This document shows positions 6,066 through 14,921 of a stretch of DNA of 64,000 bases, one piece after another. Each line of letters begins with the position of its first letter. Position 1 is the first letter of the stretch. The notes beneath the pieces are model-generated. The model did not search any database and had not been told where the DNA came from. It saw only the letters and a list, made by a program, of their open reading frames with translations. Source of the stretch: an uncultured Bacteriovoracaceae bacterium (GTDB taxonomy: Bacteria > Bdellovibrionota > UBA1018); assembly GCA_964363305.1 (NCBI GenBank), contig CAYIHX010000015.1:1173-65172 (forward strand), given 5' to 3'. The position numbers and the translations under genes are program-made.

Positions 6066-7204
6066 CGCTCGAAGATCTCTTTTGAGATGATGAGCCGCTG
6101 AATCTGCGAGGTGCCTTCGTAGATCTGGTAGATCTTGGCGTCGCGCATGAGCTTCTCGACCGGATATTCGGAAGAATAACCATAACCGCCAAAGACCTGC
6201 ACGGCGTCGGTCGAGACCTTCATGGCTGTATCGGCCGCGAAAACCTTCGCCATCGCCGCCCATTTCGTATTGCGATGCCCGTGATCGATCAGCCATGCCG
6301 CTTTGTGCGTCAGCAACCGCGCGGCCTCGATGTCCTTGGCCATGTCGGCGATCATGAAACTGATCGCCTGATACGAGGCAATGGGCTGACCAAAGGTTTT
6401 GCGAGTCTTCGCGTACTCAATCGCCTCATCCATCGCCCGGCGAGAGAGTCCGACCGCACCGGCCGCGACCGGAGGACGAGTATGATCGAATGCCGCCATC
6501 GCGGTTCTAAACCCTTCTCCTTCTTTGCCGAGGAGGTAGCGCTTCGGGATGCGCACGTTCTCGAAGGTGATCCCACGCGTATCGCTCGCCTTTTGGCCCA
6601 TGTTCCATTCCTTCTTGCCCACCGAGATGCCGGGGGTTTTGGCGGGAACGATGAACCCACTCATGCCTTTGTGCTTGAGCGTGGGGTCCGTATACGCGAG
6701 CACGAAGTACCAATCGGCGACGCCGCCATTGGTGATCCACATTTTTGCGCCGTTGATGACGTAGTCATCGCCATCCTTTTTCGCAAGGGTACGAATGCCG
6801 CTGACGTCAGAGCCTGCGCCGGGTTCAGTGACGCAGTATGCGGCGAAGAGGGGTTCGGCGGTCAAACGTCCGAGAAATTCTTTTTTCTGCTCGTCATTGC
6901 CGGCGACGATGATCGGTGCAGCCGCGAGGGTGTTTGCCTCCATCGCGGTGGCAATTCCCGTGCAGCCATACGCAAGTTCTTCGGTGATGATGCATCCTTC
7001 GAGGACGCCCAGGCCGAGGCCACCGTACTCCGCGGGGATATGAGTATTCATCAGGCCCAATTCCCAGGCTTTCTTGGCGATTTCTCGCGGGAATTCACCC
7101 TTTTCGTCGTGATGAGCCGCCTTGGGGATGATTTCCTCCTTGGCGAATTTGCGGGCGAGGTCCTGGAGTTGCTTCTGTTCTTCCGAAAGGTCAAAGTCGA
7201 TCAT
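6062..7204 (-). CDS. Acyl-CoA dehydrogenase (short/medium-chain type)
   Basis: 380 aa with canonical ACAD motifs ([30 protein letters not shown]). Confidence 0.95.
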
Positions 7205-7283: not shown

Positions 7284-8567
7284 ATGCCTGCACGTCCGCC
7301 TCACTATTCGGCTCCGGCCGGAACTTTGCCTGTCCTGACTCAGATCTGGCGCGATTTATTTACGAGTCGTGTTCATCTAGATTCCGCGATTTCGAAATTA
7401 CCGTCTTCGTCGAAGCCGGTCGTGTCTCGCTTGCTCCCCATCGTGTTGCGGCGTCCTGTCTCGCTCGCTAGCGCTTTGTACGTGCCTATCGGCGACGGAG
7501 AGCCCTGGTCCGTGCCCCTGGAGAAGAGGGTGAGCTGGAAGGGCGCCCGGGGGCTCTTCGTGAATCTGTTGCCGCAGATTGAGAAATTTGAGCGGAAGTC
7601 GGGCTCGGCGTCTGACTTCCCTCCTGAATTTTTCAACGAGTGGGAGAGAGATTGGGGGCGGGAGGCCGCGGAGGAGTTGGCGGCGACCCTTTCCAGTGAT
7701 CCGCCGATGAGTTTGCGAGCCGGGCGAAATCGGGGCGCGGAAAAATTACTGGAGGCCTTGCGGGAGGAAGTGGATTTTTCTCATGGGGGGCCGGCCCTTT
7801 CGGACGTCTCGCCGGTGGGCGTTCGGGTGGCGGGTTACGCGGCCATCGCCGAGAGCAGCCCCTTTCGCGAGGGATGGTGCGAGATTCAGGACGAGGGGTC
7901 GCAGTTCATGTCTCTTTTCGCCCTTTGGCCAGACCTCTATGCAAAATATCTGAATGAAAAACCTGGAGCGTGGAAGCATGCAGCGACTACCCAACCTCCG
8001 CGTGGGAGGAGCGCCGGCCTGACCGTGATCGATGCGTGCGCGGGCGCGGGAGGGAAGTCGCTCGCCATGGCGGATTTACTGGAAGGGCGCGGTCGAGCTT
8101 TTGCCTATGATGTGTCGCCGGTCAAGCTGAGTGCATTGAAGCGTCGGGCGCTTCGATGGGGTTTTAACAATATCCAGACGGTCGTCGTCCATTCAGGTGA
8201 AGAAGCCTCGCTCGAAGCGAAGTTCGGCGCGAAGGCGGATCGTGTTTTGATTGACGCACCTTGCTCGGGCTGGGGCGTTTTGAGGCGCAGTCCCGATATC
8301 AAGTGGAAGTGGGACTGCGCGGTCGGCGAGAGCGATTTGCCCGCGTTACAGCTTCGGCTTCTGAACGGTTATGCGAGGCTTGCCAAGCCTGGAGGGTTCG
8401 TCACCTTCGGGGTTTGTACCTTTCGCAGAGAAGAGACGGTCGAGGTGGTCCAAAAATTCTTGGATTCCACGACCGACTTTGAGTTGGTGGCGAAGGGTTT
8501 CGTCGGTCCGGGGCCCTGTGATGGGTTTTTCATGGCGGCGTTTCGCCGAAAAGGCGCCCCGGCATGA
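7284..8567 (+). CDS. RsmB/Sun-family SAM-dependent RNA m5C methyltransferase
   Basis: DACAGAGGKS SAM motif and DAPCSGWGVLRRSPDIKW catalytic motif. ATG at 7284 chosen because the ORF-track start at 7122 overlaps the acyl-CoA dehydrogenase gene. Confidence 0.8.
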   Translation: MPARPPHYSAPAGTLPVLTQIWRDLFTSRVHLDSAISKLPSSSKPVVSRLLPIVLRRPVSLASALYVPIGDGEPWSVPLEKRVSWKGARGLFVNLLPQIEKFERKSGSASDFPPEFFNEWERDWGREAAEELAATLSSDPPMSLRAGRNRGAEKLLEALREEVDFSHGGPALSDVSPVGVRVAGYAAIAESSPFREGWCEIQDEGSQFMSLFALWPDLYAKYLNEKPGAWKHAATTQPPRGRSAGLTVIDACAGAGGKSLAMADLLEGRGRAFAYDVSPVKLSALKRRALRWGFNNIQTVVVHSGEEASLEAKFGAKADRVLIDAPCSGWGVLRRSPDIKWKWDCAVGESDLPALQLRLLNGYARLAKPGGFVTFGVCTFRREETVEVVQKFLDSTTDFELVAKGFVGPGPCDGFFMAAFRRKGAPA

Positions 8568-9592
8568 TCTGGCGCGCCTTGAAGCGGCTCCTTTTTCTTT
8601 TTGATGCTGAATGGATTCATCATCTAGCGGTTCGGGCCCTGCTTCTTCTGCATCGCGTTTCTCCGTCTGGGGTCCGACTGCTTGCTGGGATTCGGGTGCC
8701 CGGTGCTCTCGAGGAGAGCGAGCGCACCTATATTGTGAGGCTCTGGGGGATGGAGTTTCTCAGCCCGGTGGGCCTAGCGGCGGGCTTCGACAAGGATGGA
8801 CGCCTGCTGAGAATCCTCCCCGATCTTGGATTTGGCTTTGCCGAAGTCGGTACGGTTACGCCGAGACCCCAGCCCGGGAACCCCAGGCCGCGCCTTTTTC
8901 GGGATCATGCCCGCCTCTCTCTCTTCAATCGCATGGGATTCAACTCCGCGGGGGCCCGTGCCGTTGCGGAGAATATTCGATCGGCTCGATCCGCGCTTCC
9001 GCCCCATTTTCGTGTCGGGATCAATATTGGCAAAAATAGAGACACCCCTCTCGAGCGCGCCTTCGAAGACTACCGAGATGCCGTGAAACCCTTTCGGGGG
9101 CTGGTCGACTATATCGTGGTCAATCTGAGTTCGCCGAATACCCCGGGCCTGAGAAGTCTGCAGAGTGTTGAGGCGATTCAACCGATCGTGGCGGCTGTCA
9201 CTGCAGAGATCTCATCTTGGCCGACGAATGCGCCCCCGATTTTGGTGAAGCTCGCGCCTGAAATCGGATCAGTTGAACTCCAAAATATTCTCATGGCGGG
9301 CTCGCAGATGGGAATTTCGGGTTGGATTCTCACCAACACCCGAGTGGGTGAGTATCACGGAGTGTCCGGAGGGTGGAGCGGCGCCTGTTTGACGGAAATT
9401 TCGCGGGAAAAGCTCTTGTTGGCTCGTACTGTTTCGAAAGCACCGATCGTCTCGGTGGGTGGGGTGATGGATGCGACTGAGGGTCGCCTTCGGAGGCGCT
9501 CTGGTGCTGATCTAGTGCAGCTCTACAGTGGGTGGATCTTTGCAGGGCCTCGGCTACCGGGCCAAGTTGCTCGAATGTGGATGATCCCCTAA
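8564..9592 (+). CDS. pyrD: Dihydroorotate dehydrogenase (quinone), class 2
   Basis: GLAAGFDKDG, EVGTVTPRPQPGNPRPRLFR and NRMGFNS motifs. Confidence 0.9.
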   Translation: MIWRALKRLLFLFDAEWIHHLAVRALLLLHRVSPSGVRLLAGIRVPGALEESERTYIVRLWGMEFLSPVGLAAGFDKDGRLLRILPDLGFGFAEVGTVTPRPQPGNPRPRLFRDHARLSLFNRMGFNSAGARAVAENIRSARSALPPHFRVGINIGKNRDTPLERAFEDYRDAVKPFRGLVDYIVVNLSSPNTPGLRSLQSVEAIQPIVAAVTAEISSWPTNAPPILVKLAPEIGSVELQNILMAGSQMGISGWILTNTRVGEYHGVSGGWSGACLTEISREKLLLARTVSKAPIVSVGGVMDATEGRLRRRSGADLVQLYSGWIFAGPRLPGQVARMWMIP

Positions 9593-9601
9593 GCTCTGGA
9601 T

Positions 9602-10408
9602 GTGGTGATCATTTCTTTTTTGCTGATGGTTTCGAGCGTTCAGGCTGCCCAAGACGGCCGAATCGTGTTGGACGAGGTGACGATTCACGAGGCACCCGAC
9701 TCTCGGAGCCCGGTATTGAATCGAATCGCGCACGGCAACGTACTGAGGATGGCCACGAGGTCGAGCAATGGATGGTATAAAGTCTCGCTCCCTCAGCCCA
9801 TTGGAACAACCGTGTTTGGGTACGTTGAAGCGTCGCAGGTAGTGGCTGATACGGTAGAGACGGACCTCAATAATGCCGGGATCGTTCACGCTGACCCGGT
9901 GGTTCGCGTCTCCGAGCGCAGGCATTGGCTGTTTCGCCCCTATTATGAGCTGCTGTTGCTCAATTCCACTCGGCTGGCTACGGCGGCTGGATCGGATCAG
10001 GGCATTGTGTTGGGGCACTCTTTCGGTGGAGAGTTTGGATATTTATATGACGGCGGGATCTCTTTAGGGCTGAGGGGCGGTTATTCGATCGCGACCGCAG
10101 TTGGAACGACTCAACTGAGCGTGTCGTCGGCTTTTACGGGACTGTTTTGTGATTACGAGTACTTTTTTCAATACCCCTTTTCGTTGGGTGTTGGATCCAC
10201 GATCGGGGCGGCCTTCATGGGGACCGTAGTCGCGCCCGAGGGTACCGTCAGGTTCTGGTTTGCTTACTGGCTCGGAAATGGCTTCGGCGTGTCGTTGGGC
10301 GGCGGCGTTCGGTACTTGAACCCTCAGGCGATTACCTTACAGGGCGAGAGTTCGGCACTTTGGCTCGGTGGTGGTTTCGCCCAGGTTATGCTGCTATTTC
10401 GAATGTAA
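9602..10408 (+). CDS. Secreted protein with N-terminal SH3b-like domain and C-terminal Gly/aromatic-rich beta-barrel-like region
   Basis: Signal-like N-terminus; SH3b-like VTIHEAPDSRSPVLNRIAHGNVLRM...GWYKV; C-terminal alternating Gly/aromatic strands. Confidence 0.45.
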   Translation: MVIISFLLMVSSVQAAQDGRIVLDEVTIHEAPDSRSPVLNRIAHGNVLRMATRSSNGWYKVSLPQPIGTTVFGYVEASQVVADTVETDLNNAGIVHADPVVRVSERRHWLFRPYYELLLLNSTRLATAAGSDQGIVLGHSFGGEFGYLYDGGISLGLRGGYSIATAVGTTQLSVSSAFTGLFCDYEYFFQYPFSLGVGSTIGAAFMGTVVAPEGTVRFWFAYWLGNGFGVSLGGGVRYLNPQAITLQGESSALWLGGGFAQVMLLFRM

Positions 10409-10427
10409 ATGTCATTCCCAAAAACAC

Positions 10428-10457
10428 GAAAGCCCCGGGTTTGCACCCGGGGCTTTC
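10428..10457. terminator. Bidirectional rho-independent terminator hairpin
   Basis: aaaGCCCCGGGT-ttgc-ACCCGGGGCttt, a 12-bp GC-rich stem. On the minus strand it is followed by UCGUGUUUUUGGG; on the plus strand by a weaker UUUCGUU. Confidence 0.6.
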
Positions 10458-10482
10458 GTTAACTACTTTCGCAAGTGAAGAC

Positions 10483-10554
10483 TTACTTCTTCTTCTTCTT
10501 TGCAACTTTCTTCTTCGCGACCTTCTTCTTTGCAGCTTTTTTCTTGGTAGCCAT
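10483..10554 (-). CDS. Micro-ORF encoding a 23-aa lysine-rich peptide, MATKKKAAKKKVAKKKVAKKKKK
   Basis: ATG at 10552-10554 with GGAGG 9 nt upstream; TAA at 10483-10485; strong intrinsic terminator ~30 nt downstream. Sits 115 nt downstream of the FecR-domain gene on the same strand. Not in the ORF track because it is too short. Confidence 0.4.
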   Translation of the reverse strand: MATKKKAAKKKVAKKKVAKKKKK

Positions 10555-10669
10555 TTTTCATTTCCTCCGTAAAAAGCGTCGTTCACCAACAACACCGTGA
10601 CGCTTACTTATTAATGTTACTCGGATCGAGCCGTAGATCAAGAACTCTACTAAACTTTTTTCGTTTTTT

Positions 10670-12874
10670 TTAGAGCGACCACCGGAGATGAAGAGAAACT
10701 CCCGCGCTCACATCGAGAGAGGAAGACGTGAAGCTCTTCAGCCAGCGATCGAGTGAAGCACGAAGATCCATCGAAGCATCGAGTGACCATCGTCCTGAAA
10801 TTGGGAACCTCCATGCAGTGCTCGATTCAAAAATTGCAATTGCAGGAGAGCCGTAGAGGAGCCCTGAGAGCGGCAGTGCGAGAGATGCCGTCGTACTCGT
10901 CGGCAGAAAAATAAGTTTAGAATCAAAATTAAAATTGAAGCTGGCGGAGGGTCCAATTGTGAATCCATATTCGGTTGAAAGCGATTGCGGACCCCCTTTT
11001 ACGAAACGAAAGGGGAGTTTCGCCATTCCTCCGAGCGACCAATTGCCCCATCGACGTTCGGCGCGAAGATGTCCTTGAATTGCTCGAATCGGGTCGGAAA
11101 ACGCCAAATTTGTCCCCGGCGGGGCTCGAAAAGCCCAAAGGTCGGCTTGGAGGTCGATCATCCAGCGTGTTTTGGTGCTCGTTCCGAGCTCAGTATCGAT
11201 CATTAGACTCTGGCGAAGGGCCGCCGAGCCGAGTGAGACACGTTCGACGATTGAACTTCCCCATTGCGCGCGAGTTCCGACTCCTGTGTACGCGGCGATT
11301 CGTGCGTTCCGAAAGACGAGCGGCTCTTTTTTTGTCGTCTCAGTCACGAGAATTGGAGATGGCGCGCTTGATTCCTGAGGTTCTTGATCACGCTGTTCCT
11401 GGTCGACCGCCCCGTAGATCTCATTTGCTTGAGGAAGACTGATTTTTTTCGCCGCGGAATAGCTTCCTGCTCTGCCATTCTCGCGGATCGAAGCGATTCG
11501 GTAGTAGTAGGTGCGCCGATTGCTCGGAGAATGTGAAAATCTCCACGTGAACTCGGGCGCTTCGACATCTTGGCGTTCGATCGTTTGTTTGAAGGATTGA
11601 GAATCAGAAATCTCGACGCGGTACCGAACGGCTCGTTTGACAGATTTCCATGTCAGGTGAATTTCGAGTGCCTCGGGCGGCTCCTCAGCCGCCCAAGCTT
11701 CCGAGATAAAGAGGCTAAGCCAACTCGTGCGTTTCTTTGGTTTGGCCGGGGGAATAGCGCTGGGGCCTGGCATCTTCTTTATTGTGATCTCAGCTTTGTC
11801 GAGATCGGGAGGGGGCAGCTCTTCTTCGGTCGGGTGACTTGGAATTCGACTGGAGACGGAATGTGCATCTGCGGAATTTTGAATTCTGAATGGTCGGCTT
11901 GGACTACTGCTTCCGCTACGAGCACCGCGGACGCGCCAATAGTACAATTCGACTCCGTTTGGAGGACCGAGACTCACCTTGGCTTGAACCTCCGCTCGCG
12001 GTGTAGGAGATTGCGCAATGGTTATCCGTTTGATGATTTCTGAGAAATGCTGGTTCTTGGCCACCTCAAGCACAAGGGGCTCGTCCGGATAAGCGGGGGA
12101 GGGAGAGCCCCTCCAAGAAAAATTGACTTCGGTCGTTGATGTTCGTGACTCAATCACTTCATTTACGTCCGGATATAGGGGCATGAATGGGGGGGTATCC
12201 ACTTGGGGGGCGAGTTGGGAGGTAGGATCGCTCGCGAGAACAACTTTCTCACCGCGTTTGAGATCGACGACCCCCGTGGGGGACACCACTTCCGCGGCTC
12301 CTTCGGATAGGTAGAACTGGGTTTCTCCGCTTTCGGCGACGCTGATGGAGAACTCAGCTGTCGCATTGGGGCGCAGATGCGCGCTCCCGACGATGAGTTC
12401 AAATGCTTTCTGTTGAGAACGCGGACTTTTCCGGAGGGTGCCCCTCAGTAAGCGAATTCGAACCGGGCCGCCGCGAGCGAAGGAGTCAGACCGTGAGACC
12501 TCGATCATGCTCTGAGGTCCGATGATGATCCCCAGCCCGTCATTGAATTGAACTTCCGCCTGTCCTGATTCGCCAGTCATCAGGTGGTCATATTCCCGGA
12601 GGTTGGTCTGCGATGGGGCCGATAGCCAGGCTAACTCTCCCTCGGACCGCAACCGCGTGTCTCGACTGCTGTCCACCAAGGAGGCGATTTCCGGTCTGTC
12701 CGAAAGTCGGCTGGACGCGTCCCCGGCGATCCAGTTCACCCATCGATCTAGATCAAAGAGAAGATAGATCTGGGCCGCCAGCACCAGCAGCGAAAGGCCG
12801 ACGAAAGTTGGCCACTTCTTATTTGTATTTTGTTGAACAGGTAGAGCATCCACCATTGTAGCTTTGTCGCCCAT
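10670..12874 (-). CDS. Large secreted FecR-domain protein with Pro-rich linker and two FN3-like (YYWRV) modules
   Basis: N-terminal TM/signal, then FecR-like domain (AEVQFNDGLGIIIGPQSMIEV...FELIVGSAHLRPNATAEF). FN3 hallmarks YYWRVRGARSG and YYYRIASIRENG. Start set at MGDK (12874) rather than the ORF-track 12952. Confidence 0.55.
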   Translation of the reverse strand: MGDKATMVDALPVQQNTNKKWPTFVGLSLLVLAAQIYLLFDLDRWVNWIAGDASSRLSDRPEIASLVDSSRDTRLRSEGELAWLSAPSQTNLREYDHLMTGESGQAEVQFNDGLGIIIGPQSMIEVSRSDSFARGGPVRIRLLRGTLRKSPRSQQKAFELIVGSAHLRPNATAEFSISVAESGETQFYLSEGAAEVVSPTGVVDLKRGEKVVLASDPTSQLAPQVDTPPFMPLYPDVNEVIESRTSTTEVNFSWRGSPSPAYPDEPLVLEVAKNQHFSEIIKRITIAQSPTPRAEVQAKVSLGPPNGVELYYWRVRGARSGSSSPSRPFRIQNSADAHSVSSRIPSHPTEEELPPPDLDKAEITIKKMPGPSAIPPAKPKKRTSWLSLFISEAWAAEEPPEALEIHLTWKSVKRAVRYRVEISDSQSFKQTIERQDVEAPEFTWRFSHSPSNRRTYYYRIASIRENGRAGSYSAAKKISLPQANEIYGAVDQEQRDQEPQESSAPSPILVTETTKKEPLVFRNARIAAYTGVGTRAQWGSSIVERVSLGSAALRQSLMIDTELGTSTKTRWMIDLQADLWAFRAPPGTNLAFSDPIRAIQGHLRAERRWGNWSLGGMAKLPFRFVKGGPQSLSTEYGFTIGPSASFNFNFDSKLIFLPTSTTASLALPLSGLLYGSPAIAIFESSTAWRFPISGRWSLDASMDLRASLDRWLKSFTSSSLDVSAGVSLHLRWSL

Positions 12875-14921
12875 CTGTGATTCTATATCTATGGTCGGCA
12901 GCGTGAAATACCCAATTCGCACAAAGATGGCGGCGCTGTGCGCTTTTCTCACTATTTTTGCGACCGGAGCCTATCTTGCGCTCGCCGTATCCGTGTTTCG
13001 TGCGGATAAACTCGAGCTCGTGTATGAATTGAACCACTCGACAGTCAGATCACTGACAGGTGAGTTAGATTCCTTCATTAGATCCGCCCGGGAGCAGATT
13101 CGCATTCTCGCCCAGGTGAGCTCGAATCGGGAAATCGTGGAAGGGCTGCTGGCTGGCGACAAGGATGTCCTTCATTTCGCTCTGTTCGAGAGGGCGAAAG
13201 AGTGGAAGCCGCTCGTTGAATTTTCAGGGCGGGATCAAAAACAGATGTCTATGGACCGAGCCTCCATCCCCTGGGCTCGAATCGAGAAGGAAGGACTGGT
13301 AACTTGGAATTCTTCTCGTGTGCCGGAAGATATGCCCGCAATTTCCGTGGCTGTTCGAATTCTGGCGGAAAATGATCGTGGTGCGGAACTTATTGGGGTT
13401 CTCGAGTATAAAGCTGATCTCATCCTTAGAGCGATGGGCGCACGATCGTTGGCGGAGGTCTTTGCCGTTGAATCTTCAGGTAGGGTGTATCTGCACCCCA
13501 GTTCAGACCATCTTTATGTGTCTAAGCTTTTACAGGAGGATCCGCTGATCAAAGAGGCGCTCCAGAGCCCTCTTCGGACTCAGGTTCGCAACTACAGGGA
13601 CGGAAACAAGGAGTGGCTTGCGGCCTTCTCAACGACGGAGCTGGGAGGGGTTAGGGTTCTGTCCCGTGTCGATTCTTCTCAGGCGTTGCGCGCAGCCAGA
13701 GGGCTCATCGCGCGGTCCGTAGTGTTTTTCGGCATCATCGTTACCTTGTCGATCATTCTAAGTACTTGGCTTGCGCGTCAGTTTACCCGCCCGTTGTCTT
13801 CCTTGGTTGAGGCTACGGAGCGGATATCGAAGGGTGACCTGAATGTAACTCTCCATGTCGATACCCGGGATGAGCTCGCAGTTTTAACGAGTTCGTTCAA
13901 TGTCATGGCGTTTGAACTCGCCAGACAACGCGCGGCGCTTGAACAGCAGCAGCATGAGTTGACGTTGAAGGTGAAAGAGCGGACGCAGTCGCTTGAGACG
14001 GAAAAAAGAAGTACGGCCGAGGCGCAGCAGAATCTCCTAAAAACCACGCGTCTAGCCACGCTAGGAGAGATGGCAGGCGTTACCGCACATGAAGTTTTAA
14101 ATCCGTTGAACAACATGAACATTCGAATTGAGAAATTCAAAGCGCAAACCGCGGCATTGAGAGAGTCAGACTTGCAGGTTTTAGGTCAGATTTTGTCCGG
14201 ATGGAGGGCCGCCGTGGCTGCGGGGGGGGTGAGTCAGCTGGCCTCGGAGCTTGCGAAATCCGTGAGCCCGGAAAAACGCCTCATTGATGAGGATCTCGAT
14301 AACCTCGATGGCATCGCGAAAGACTTTCAAGGGACGCTGTCGTCTTTCAGGGAAGATATGGTTTTTTTCTCCTCCCAGATCGCTCGTGTCACTCGCATCG
14401 TGAATAACATGCGCTCACTTTCTAGGGTCGGAGGTGAGCGACGGCCAATCGATGTTCACCGTCCTCTCGATGACACTCTTTTGACGCTTAAAGATGCTGC
14501 GCAGAAGAGGAAGGTCTCGTTGGTTTCTGAATATAGCCAAGACCCGAGAGAAAACTTCGTGATCATTGCTGACCACGATGAACTGATTCAGGTATTCTCT
14601 AATCTGGTGCGAAACGCGATGGATGCCCTCATGCAGACTCGGGAGCTTCGTGCGCCCGAGGTTCGGATTCGAACTTCTTGGGACGAAGGCCGAGTTATTG
14701 TACAAATTTGCGACAACGGACCCGGCGTTGATGCCGCGATTCGTGCCCGTCTTTTCGAGCCGAATGTCACGACGAAGAGCGCGGCCGATGGAACAGGTCT
14801 TGGTCTGAGCATTTGTAGGCGTATCATTCGGGCGTTTGACGGCGATATCGATGTCGTGGACCGAGAAGATGGACAGCCCGGTGCGGTATTCAGAGTCTGG
14901 TTACCGAGGGTGAGGTCATGA
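12864..14921 (+). CDS. Sensor histidine kinase (TM-sensor-TM, HAMP, HisKA, HATPase)
   Basis: HAMP region (SLVEATERISKGDLNVTL...ELAVLTSSFNVMAFEL), H-box AGVTAHEVLNPLNNM, G-boxes DNGPGVD/GTGLGLSICRRII. The true start is probably an internal Met (12891 or 12927) because the divergent FecR gene starts at ~12874. Confidence 0.85.
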   Translation: MSPICDSISMVGSVKYPIRTKMAALCAFLTIFATGAYLALAVSVFRADKLELVYELNHSTVRSLTGELDSFIRSAREQIRILAQVSSNREIVEGLLAGDKDVLHFALFERAKEWKPLVEFSGRDQKQMSMDRASIPWARIEKEGLVTWNSSRVPEDMPAISVAVRILAENDRGAELIGVLEYKADLILRAMGARSLAEVFAVESSGRVYLHPSSDHLYVSKLLQEDPLIKEALQSPLRTQVRNYRDGNKEWLAAFSTTELGGVRVLSRVDSSQALRAARGLIARSVVFFGIIVTLSIILSTWLARQFTRPLSSLVEATERISKGDLNVTLHVDTRDELAVLTSSFNVMAFELARQRAALEQQQHELTLKVKERTQSLETEKRSTAEAQQNLLKTTRLATLGEMAGVTAHEVLNPLNNMNIRIEKFKAQTAALRESDLQVLGQILSGWRAAVAAGGVSQLASELAKSVSPEKRLIDEDLDNLDGIAKDFQGTLSSFREDMVFFSSQIARVTRIVNNMRSLSRVGGERRPIDVHRPLDDTLLTLKDAAQKRKVSLVSEYSQDPRENFVIIADHDELIQVFSNLVRNAMDALMQTRELRAPEVRIRTSWDEGRVIVQICDNGPGVDAAIRARLFEPNVTTKSAADGTGLGLSICRRIIRAFDGDIDVVDREDGQPGAVFRVWLPRVRS

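Follow-up and report, generated by a model that had tools for sequence, protein, structure and literature searches.

An oligolysine micro-gene conserved beside pyrD in Bdellovibrionota: a candidate DNA-binding polycation

A 64,000-nucleotide stretch of DNA from an uncultured Bacteriovoracaceae bacterium (Bdellovibrionota; contig CAYIHX010000015.1, positions 1,173 to 65,172), called here the window, carries on its minus strand a micro open reading frame (micro-ORF) of 23 codons encoding the lysine-rich peptide MATKKKAAKKKVAKKKVAKKKKK. The frame had been pointed out in an earlier note made from the letters of the window. Comparison with related loci and with protein databases indicated that the micro-ORF is very probably a real translated gene. 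The reading that we favour as a whole, namely that the gene is translated into an oligolysine peptide which binds DNA in the manner of a linker-histone H1 tail, has in our estimate a probability of about 0.45.

Results

The micro-ORF and its product

The minus strand of the window (Table 1) was read as the codons ATG GCT ACC AAG AAA AAA GCT GCA AAG AAG AAG GTC GCG AAG AAG AAA GTT GCA AAG AAG AAG AAG AAG TAA, immediately preceded on the 5' side by ACGGAGGAAATGAAAA. The frame is bounded by a stop two codons 5' of the ATG, and by the TAA. This reading bore out what the earlier note had said of the gene itself: the position of the ATG, the GGAGG nine nucleotides upstream of it, the 23 codons with their translation and the TAA at the end.

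The encoded peptide has 14 Lys, 5 Ala, 2 Val and 1 Thr within its 23 residues; it contains no Pro and no hydrophobic stretch. The computed mass is 2467 Da without Met (average mass 2467.2 Da) and 2598.4 Da with Met, the pI is 11.1 and the charge approximately +14. When the 64 kb of the window were searched for ORFs with at least 9 Lys per 20 residues, the micro-ORF was the sole one of this kind. Its predicted tryptic products are ATK, AAK, VAK and free K only. Two things would have kept the gene out of sight: gene callers skip or mis-call the micro-ORF, and trypsin cuts the peptide into pieces of 1-3 residues.

Two other ways of reading this segment were rejected. An upstream out-of-frame ATG at 10561, which would open a 32-aa ORF, lies just 2 nt from the Shine-Dalgarno (SD) sequence and is missing in relatives. 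Coding on the opposite strand (frame LLLLLLCNFLL...) conflicts with the codon alignment, where wobble variation of GCN becomes variation of NGC, so that the varying sites would be radical amino-acid changes.

Conservation of the reading frame in Bdellovibrionota

Loci containing pyrD were taken from metagenomes, from genomes of the Genome Taxonomy Database (GTDB) and from assemblies, and were scanned for ORFs that begin with ATG, are 15-40 aa long and contain 50% Lys or more. Every fetched Bdellovibrionota locus that extends past pyrD contained exactly one Lys-rich micro-ORF. Without exception it is convergent to pyrD, on the other strand, and lies 68-120 nt past the end of pyrD or of one intervening gene (9 of 10 loci measured; the pyrD end of L087 is undefined). 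No ORF of the specified kind was found in approximately 150 non-Bdellovibrionota pyrD loci, which amount to about 2 Mb scanned on both strands.

The set used for the study of conservation consisted of the window and 10 further distinct sequences (L163, L002, L164, L166, L168, L083, L087, L005, L006 and L086; Table 2), whose pyrD genes are 45-66% identical to the queries used. A near-identical 6.1-kb contig from Hainich groundwater (L001; ENA ERZ1292616) has a micro-ORF region identical to that of the window and was uninformative for conservation, because it represents the same population.

In the codon alignment there are 12 all-Lys columns, and both AAA and AAG are present in 11 of them. All 150 Lys codons are AAR, with A-A invariably at the first two positions, whereas in the spacer codons GCN, ACN and GTN the wobble base is free to change. 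Of 26 columns, 8, 6 and 21 are variable at codon positions 1, 2 and 3, and the pairwise nucleotide differences are distributed over the three positions in the ratio 217:112:578. Insertions and deletions within the micro-ORF comprise whole codons, and the stop is TAA in all sequences. The restriction of Lys codons to AAR, the free wobble, the whole-codon indels and the constant TAA together show that purifying selection acts on the Lys-encoding reading frame and not merely on the nucleotides.

Sequence identity follows the same boundaries. Mean pairwise identity reached 0.70 within the ORF and 0.77 over the SD plus spacer, as opposed to 0.31 in the 5' untranslated region (5'UTR) and 0.36 in the 3'UTR spacer. 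In all 10 further loci the reading frame is kept together with an SD and a terminator, which is the conservation in relatives that the earlier note had proposed as a check. The finding that the note had named as a refutation, relatives that share the nucleotides but not the frame, was not obtained.

Table 1. Features at and around the micro-ORF of the window, in the order of minus-strand transcription
Feature	Position	Strand	Remarks
FecR-domain gene, 760-aa ORF	10670-12952	-	Pfam FecR, E=6e-7
A-rich tract, UP-element-like (putative role)	10646-10671	-	Reads AAAAAAAACGAAAAAAGTTTAG; begins inside the stop codon of the FecR-domain gene
Putative sigma70-type promoter	10614-10641	-	-35 TTGATC, 10641-10636; 16-nt spacer; -10 TAACAT, 10619-10614
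5'-terminal stem-loop of the predicted mRNA	10571-10603	-	ViennaRNA; leaves the SD single-stranded; transcription start probably near 10607
SD sequence GGAGG	10564-10568 (10568-10564)	-	9-nt A-rich spacer before the ATG
Micro-ORF	10483-10554	-	23 codons plus TAA; encodes MATKKKAAKKKVAKKKVAKKKKK; read directly on the minus strand
Start codon ATG	10554-10552	-	
Stop codon TAA	10485-10483	-	
Pyrimidine-rich tract	10470-10482	-	GTCTTCACTTGCG, directly 3' of the stop; predicted to pair with the last Lys codons
Intrinsic terminator	10420-10459	-	15-bp stem, 10459-10426; GCAA loop (4 nt); then GTTTTT
pyrD	8564-9592		Quinone-dependent dihydroorotate dehydrogenase; adjoining region, convergent to the micro-ORF

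Table 2. Micro-peptides encoded at Bdellovibrionota pyrD loci other than the window
Locus	Peptide
L163	MAAKKKAAKKKATKKKATKKKKK
L002	MATKKKATKKKATKKKATKKKTAKK
L164/165	MATKKKATKKKAAKKTATKKKKK
L166-169	MATKKKATKKKTAKKKTAKKKKK
L083	MAKKKAAKKKTAKKKSTKKKKK
L087	MAKKKVAKKKTAKKKVAKKKAKK
L005	MAKKKAAKKKTAKKKTAKKKAKK
L006	MAKKKAAKKKTAKKKTAKKKK
L086	MAKKKAAKKAKKRPSKKKKK

Expression signals and the predicted transcript

The element TTGATC-N16-TAACAT, noticed already in the earlier note, was located in the spacer upstream of the micro-ORF (Table 1) and matches only once in the window, against 0.01 matches expected by chance. A generic promoter scan did not flag it, because only 8 of its 12 consensus positions match; support for the promoter therefore comes from conservation and not from the match to the consensus. 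In the 11 aligned loci CTTGA is invariant, GTAACAT is found in 8, and the mean pairwise identity of the promoter is 0.60 versus 0.31 in the adjacent 5'UTR. The A-rich tracts hold the same position in other Bdellovibrionota loci (alignment A3).

Folding with ViennaRNA predicted a 5' hairpin in all 11 loci. It starts no further than about 5 nt from the predicted 5' end and always lies 5' of the SD, with free energies of -6 to -20 kcal/mol and z-scores of -0.4 to -4.7. The structure is kept while its sequences are unrelated between lineages. We infer that this predicted hairpin acts as an mRNA stabiliser, or else as an operator for autoregulation. It is followed by the sequence GGAGGA, which is invariant in 11 of 11 loci, is preceded by C or T, and is separated by 8-10 A-rich nucleotides from ATG GCN.

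On the 3' side, a CTTCTT or CTTTTT tract follows the TAA in the window and in L163, L164, L166, L083, L087, L005 and L006, and also in the 68% GC contig L174 (3625-3633) described below. Predicted pairing of this tract with the final GAAGAAG of the Lys codons places the stop codon in a hairpin loop. Folding gave such a stop-codon hairpin in 9 of the 10 Bdellovibrionota loci, with z between -1.3 and -3.9 relative to shuffled 3'UTRs; protection of the mRNA, or a part in termination or recycling, are possible functions.

The terminator stem starts 23 nt after the micro-ORF stop and contains 10 GC pairs out of 15. Across the 11 loci 87.9% of the alignment cells are paired, and compensatory changes occur in 6 of 9 pairs. 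The covariation score was reached by none of 500 shuffles, and in slid controls pairing fell to 17-58%. The earlier note was right in describing a GC hairpin with a run of T, its 12-bp core (10457-10428) being contained in the 15-bp stem, but had put the distance from the gene at about 30 nt. It had also assigned to this hairpin the termination of the convergent plus-strand gene. The hairpin could indeed stop this gene, whose end is at 10408, but what comes after the stem in the plus-strand direction is TAACTACTTT, a poor T-tract, and the hairpin is for this reason regarded as primarily the terminator of the micro-ORF.

The predicted transcript is approximately 190 nt long. The unit can be considered monocistronic, because in L164-L169 no other gene shares its strand in the interval from pyrD to a histidine kinase gene. 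Taken together, these results support the conclusion that the micro-ORF has its own promoter, SD and terminator.

The wider family and mis-called database entries

Proteins were searched first with a query of concatenated peptides; a hidden Markov model (HMM) built from the mis-called ORFs was then run against a set of 1.84 billion representative proteins. The concatenated query retrieved 'hypothetical proteins' of 56-72 aa whose C-termini are the micro-peptide. Their N-termini correspond to translated promoter and SD, LLDL being the translation of CTTGATCT, GNI of GGTAACAT and NGG of AACGGAGG. The HMM search yielded 64 representatives at E<=1e-3 among the 1.84e9 proteins, and most of these are mis-called ORFs of 38-85 aa. 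Of 67 retrieved sequences, 57 end in a 20-26 aa peptide of the form M-A-x-KKK-xx-KKK-xx-KKK, with 45 distinct peptides, and in 50 of the 57 residues of the GG or EE type, which represent the translated SD, stand just before the Met. The pooled composition of the family is 58% Lys, 25% Ala, 10% Thr and 0.4% Arg. A single KKPAAKKK occurs in a few members, and Pro is tolerated in the middle of the peptide.

In the database entries P0124-P0130 and P0135-P0194 gene callers had extended the micro-ORF in the 5' direction through the SD, the 5'UTR and the promoter, giving 'hypothetical proteins' of 34-110 aa in which the motifs LLDL, GNI and NGG/RGGD/MEE are translated -35, -10 and SD elements. These mis-called entries of 34-110 aa are artefacts with a real gene of 20-26 aa at the 3' end. 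A similar call was seen at 6137-6241 (minus strand) of L166/L167/L169, where the called protein has 34 aa and its start is an AUG within the 5' hairpin. The 56-aa mis-called P0144 shares a cluster at 90% identity with P0196, a protein of 385 aa (Logan and ENA; 6 contigs); an artefact of the clustering, or else a call resulting from read-through or fusion, may account for this grouping.

Members of the family were found in DNA of high GC content. In L172 (66-70% GC) a near-consensus sigma54-type -24/-12 element, TGGCACGCAATCTGCA, at 2781-2796 lies immediately 3' of an NtrC-type activator gene and is followed by a hairpin, GAGGAGG, MAAKKKAAKKKGTKKKAAKKKK and TAA. The micro-ORF directly follows the kinase-activator pair. 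A sigma54 promoter of this type is translated as 'WHAxC' in three independent representatives (P0151, P0154 and P0171). With sigma54-type promoters in high-GC members and TTGATC-N16-TAACAT in Bdellovibrionota, the same peptide thus appears to be under different regulation in different lineages. A second contig, L174 (64-70% GC, from a soil sample), encodes MAAKKKAAKKPAAKKKAAKKK with AAGGAGG upstream and TAA, the CTTCTCTTC tract and a terminator downstream. Its neighbouring genes are unrelated to those of the window, and the CTTCTCTTC tract after the stop is common to both. The high-GC members share the layout of SD, ATG-GCN, TAA, CTTCTT and terminator, and have different neighbours.

A longer ORF of 45 aa, rich in Lys, Ala and Pro (MAAKKKSAKKKSAAKKKAAPKKK...KKKK), was seen at 6196-6333 (plus strand) of L170 and in L171, both from metagenome-assembled genomes (MAGs) labelled Gammaproteobacteria. 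It has GGAGG 7 nt upstream and a terminator, and sits between an EVE-domain gene and ilvA. From its sequence it could be a longer relative of the oligolysine family in another phylum, or an analogue.

Among 2.9 million viral contigs (IMG/VR) there was one distinct match, the Lys-rich N-terminus of a longer phage protein, and no micro-ORF. Judged by these contigs, the micro-ORF family is not phage-borne. The phage protein, in L178/L179 (3380-3444, minus strand), starts with MATKKKAAKKKAAKKTPPKPP... and runs into a longer ORF; its Lys-rich tail resembles the micro-peptide.

Searches against families, structures and literature

Six peptides of the family gave no match at E<=10 in Pfam or NCBIfam, and the Pfam models Hc1 and HC2 did not match family peptides. 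A phmmer search of PDB chains of at least 20 residues, ribosomal micro-proteins included, returned 0 matches at E<=10. No Rfam family reaches its threshold at the micro-ORF. The attack-phase small RNAs (sRNAs) APsRNA1-5 of Bdellovibrio bacteriovorus HD100 and the start of merRNA differ in sequence from the micro-ORF transcript. The six peptide strings do not occur in the searched literature. Lys/Ala-rich nucleic-acid binders of the H1-like type and tiny basic peptides are already known as kinds of molecule; a stand-alone oligolysine gene of 20-26 codons with a conserved expression cassette is not described in the literature or databases searched.

Genomic neighbourhood

The FecR-domain gene is on the same strand as the micro-ORF and ends 115 nt before its ATG, in agreement with the earlier note. 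When homologues of the FecR-domain protein (734-760 aa) were sought among 5.8 billion proteins, only the protein itself and a 99% identical copy were found, and a genome scan found none. The closest syntenic relative of the window is the P0006 contig, which lies outside the scanned loci; its pyrD is 64% identical and the gene order is RsmB, pyrD, SH3, a 258-nt gap and a 748-aa gene. This last gene, with no Pfam match on record, occupies the place of the FecR-domain gene of the window. The FecR-domain protein looks like an envelope or signalling protein that evolves rapidly.

The best matches of the window pyrD are 64-66% identical, and those that are named come from Bdellovibrionota or Bdellovibrionales MAGs, which places the source organism in Bdellovibrionota. 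When a genome collection was scanned with the P0006 pyrD as query, the best matches were Bacteriovoracaceae and Bdellovibrionia MAGs. Beside pyrD, Rfam reported a sub-threshold PyrR binding site at 10422-10580 (minus strand) of the window with 23.8 bits; as this is far below the gathering score of 54 and E=0.36, the match was judged to be at chance level.

Two-component genes were seen near the micro-ORF in L002 and in L164-L169, among them those for an NtrY-like kinase and for a sigma54 activator. Of the plus-strand segment 12864-22880 of the window, the first gene (12864-14921) was confirmed as a HAMP histidine kinase. The ribosomal cluster tuf-rplKAJL-rpoBC is at 28-41 kb of the window, 18 kb from the micro-ORF.

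Discussion

DNA as the candidate target of the peptide

We propose that the micro-ORF is a strongly signalled monocistronic gene. Its transcript of about 190 nt, with a protective 5'-terminal hairpin, a consensus SD and an intrinsic terminator, would be translated into an oligolysine peptide of 22-23 residues with the pattern (KKK-xx)4, in which x is Ala, Thr or Val, and this peptide, not the RNA, would be the functional product. Because a hydrophobic core is lacking and no position is fixed apart from the KKKxx periodicity, the peptide could act only as a flexible polycation of about +14, which would bind a polyanion electrostatically and neutralise its charge. The product is probably a polyanion-binding polycation. 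The preferred target would be chromosomal DNA: the peptide would be a stand-alone counterpart to the Lys/Ala-rich C-terminal tail of linker histone H1 and to the H1-like proteins of bacteria, and would contribute to condensing or coating the nucleoid. We infer translation in vivo, high expression, the polyanion-binding mode and DNA as target from the features described above; the choice of DNA or the nucleoid as main target is tentative, and we would put it somewhat below even odds.

Three properties favour DNA or chromatin over ribosomal RNA (rRNA). Arg is excluded almost totally, even where GC pressure favours Arg codons; the Lys/Ala/Thr(/Pro) composition is the one typically seen in H1 tails and in the H1-like proteins of bacteria; and variation in length and spacers is tolerated. 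The earlier note had likened the peptide to histone H1 and to the tails of AlgP and Hc1. The resemblance in composition to Lys/Ala tails of the H1 type held for the whole family, with 58% Lys, 25% Ala, 10% Thr and almost no Arg. Membership in the AlgP/Hc1 type did not: there is no Pfam or NCBIfam match, the window peptide has no KPAA repeats and no structured domain, and its length is 23 aa versus more than 100 aa. As to precedents, the small, basic Coxiella proteins Hq1 and ScvA, which bind DNA, are enriched in the cell form with a condensed nucleoid (PMC4766238), and the G1 cells of B. bacteriovorus have an unusually compact nucleoid whose cause is unexplained (PMC8445325).

Several points weigh against a DNA-condensing role. 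Both translation and binding are predictions from sequence. The likeness to H1 tails is one of low-complexity composition and not of homology, there being no relative in Pfam, NCBIfam or PDB. In Bdellovibrionota the promoter is sigma70-like and not of the FliA type, by which B. bacteriovorus drives the majority of its attack-phase genes. Eight sRNAs are reported as specific to the attack phase in strain HD100, which may or may not carry the gene, and the transcript is none of these (PMC3627812). A role in condensing the nucleoid of attack-phase cells is weakened by the promoter type and by this absence. Moreover, the source of the window is an uncultured groundwater lineage whose lifestyle is not established. 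Finally, disordered Lys/Ala-rich regions can have other partners. The Lys/Ala/Pro region of PhaF (KPAA repeats) binds RNA: it attaches to mRNAs upstream of the SD, and it activates translation (PMC12818456). Polyphosphate granules are the partner of the H1-like Lys/Ala/Pro-rich protein AlgP, which associates with them and spaces them (PMC9239181; PMC12818456). This makes DNA a plurality choice only.

A stronger version of the proposal would make the family a bacterial 'protamine', that is, an abundant stand-alone analogue, of about 22 residues, of the linker-histone tail, serving as a principal charge-neutralising and condensing agent of DNA in Bdellovibrionota and in several high-GC lineages. 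We regard this version as doubtful. B. bacteriovorus uses true histones as its major chromatin proteins.

Other possible functions

The alternative that survives best is a ribosome- or RNA-associated micro-protein, either a tiny lineage-specific ribosomal protein of the bS22/bL37/bL38/Thx/eL41 kind or a free RNA-binding peptide, rich in Lys, with a modulating effect on translation such as the PhaF KPAA region has; we consider it rather unlikely. With its sigma70-type promoter and A-tract, consensus SD, TAA and strong terminator, the micro-ORF does look like a highly expressed housekeeping gene, its length range of 20-26 aa is tight, and the family is present in several lineages. Lineage-specific tiny basic ribosomal proteins are established, were found only by cryo-electron microscopy (PMC7797042, PMC11851116, PMC10081302), and our search turned up no solved ribosome structure from Bdellovibrionota; binding to mRNA has its precedent in PhaF (PMC12818456). 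However, a peptide with nearly no Arg (0.4%), no aromatic residues and no fixed positions beyond the K triplets, with variable spacers and length and with Pro tolerated in the middle, does not resemble a protein that occupies a defined pocket in rRNA, and no PDB chain matched at E<=10. Nor is there a link to ribosomal-protein operons, whereas bL38 is encoded in the bL28-bL33 operon. The sigma54-type promoter beside an NtrC-type activator gene in high-GC members likewise argues against this alternative, since it suggests expression that is conditional and not coupled to growth rate.

That the polycation serves another polyanion or surface (polyphosphate granules as with AlgP, anionic membrane lipids, or the cytoplasm as a polyamine-like counter-ion) is improbable. 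The charge-only design, a periodic KKKxx without a specific motif, would suit such a role, and AlgP is known to associate with polyphosphate granules and to space them (PMC9239181; PMC12818456). Neighbouring genes differ by lineage, with no polyphosphate kinase, CHAD or membrane-related gene consistently adjacent, and the sequence gives nothing by which this role could be separated from DNA or RNA binding.

The size of the transcript, its 5' hairpin and its intrinsic terminator are those of an sRNA, and behind the stop there is a conserved stretch of pyrimidines with which the Lys codons can pair. AAR triplets satisfy the A-R-N rule of the distal face of Hfq. The functional product could thus be the RNA of about 190 nt, its (AAR)n repeats and U-tail binding Hfq or another protein, or pairing with targets of the CUUCUU type, with the ORF incidental or the function dual. 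We hold this to be very improbable. The third base of the 150 Lys codons is A or G and never C or U, which is needed for coding Lys and not for A-R-N; the second base is always A; and GCN, ACN and GTN codons break the A-R-N pattern every 9 nt. Furthermore, all loci, including those of 64-70% GC, keep ATG-GCN with GGAGG 8-10 nt before it, indels that leave the frame intact and a TAA right after the K run, although an A-R-N motif could do without ATG, SD and stop. No Rfam family was matched at threshold. The candidate of an Hfq-type A-R-N sRNA was rejected, the substitution pattern being that of Lys coding.

A cis-acting function is the least probable of the four and can be given hardly any weight. 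Here the 14 Lys codons would act as a translational sensor or leader peptide reporting the supply of Lys-tRNA or the sliding of ribosomes, and would control a neighbour, for example the convergent pyrD by transcriptional interference. Runs of Lys codons do perturb elongation, and in all Bdellovibrionota loci the micro-ORF keeps its linkage to the pyrD 3' end, from which at most one gene separates it. In none of the loci, however, does a same-strand gene follow, the next gene being convergent or on the other strand; for the same reason the 'regulatory peptide' suggested in the earlier note is unlikely. There is a single strong covarying terminator with no competing anti-terminator fold among the predicted structures, so that a leader peptide or transcription attenuator was rejected. 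Members in high-GC contigs and in the MAG labelled Gammaproteobacteria are not beside pyrD, and the PyrR-site match is at chance level. A type I toxin or membrane micro-protein and a secreted antimicrobial peptide were also rejected, the former for lack of a hydrophobic transmembrane segment, the latter for lack of a signal peptide and of export genes.

Significance

If the peptide is as abundant as the expression signals suggest, a major cellular polycation is absent from every proteome and annotation of these organisms, as the oligolysine gene is systematically missed or mis-called by annotation and its product is undetectable by tryptic proteomics. The DNA-binding polycation proposed here would be a candidate for the unexplained extreme compaction of the nucleoid in Bdellovibrio (PMC8445325) and would represent a minimal natural model of the organisation of nucleic acids by oligolysine tails. 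The family illustrates that purifying selection can maintain a gene of 20-26 codons, transcribed on its own, in genomes that are very divergent. Its signature for annotation, an SD, ATG-GCN, (AAR)3-NNN-NNN repeats, TAA and a terminator, could be used to recover the gene and to weed out 'hypothetical proteins' that are spurious, of which there are dozens.

Comparison with known systems

The micro-peptide resembles AlgP and the C-terminal region of PhaF of Pseudomonas, Hc1/Hc2 of Chlamydia and Hq1 of Coxiella in its Lys/Ala-dominated low-complexity repeats with almost no Arg. It shares with these H1-like proteins the predicted disorder and, presumably, the binding of polyanions through lysines, and the KKPAAKKK of some family members recalls the KPAA repeats of AlgP, PhaF and H1 tails (PMC12818456). 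The H1-like proteins are 100 to more than 300 aa long, most of them with a structured or oligomerising domain, whereas the micro-peptide is the repeat alone, 20-26 aa with 4-5 KKKxx pentads, and has its own gene. What it has in common with that group is composition; it shows neither a match to Pfam Hc1/HC2 nor tandem KPAA, and it is not a protein of more than 100 aa with an appended domain.

ScvA of Coxiella burnetii is about 30 aa long and rich in Arg and Gln, and is not known to have an oligolysine repeat; a sequence relationship to the micro-peptide is not to be expected. It is like the micro-peptide in being a very small, basic, stand-alone protein, and it was reported to bind DNA and belongs to a developmental form with a compact nucleoid (PMC4766238).

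The ribosomal micro-proteins bS22, bL37, bL38, Thx and eL41 are comparable in size (about 24-50 aa), several are strongly basic, and they were often missed by annotation, are restricted to lineages and were found late. The strongly basic ones are Arg-rich and have defined conserved positions, whereas the micro-peptide family is Lys-only, periodic and variable in length, with no PDB match. The bL38 gene lies in a ribosomal-protein operon, the micro-ORF in a monocistronic unit beside pyrD and two-component genes.

The tpr ORF is Arg-rich and narrowly distributed. It is also a tiny basic ORF, annotated as protamine-like, whose function was never established (PMC3141248). It is located inside a tRNA operon transcript, whereas the micro-ORF is monocistronic, Lys-only and conserved across divergent lineages under purifying selection.

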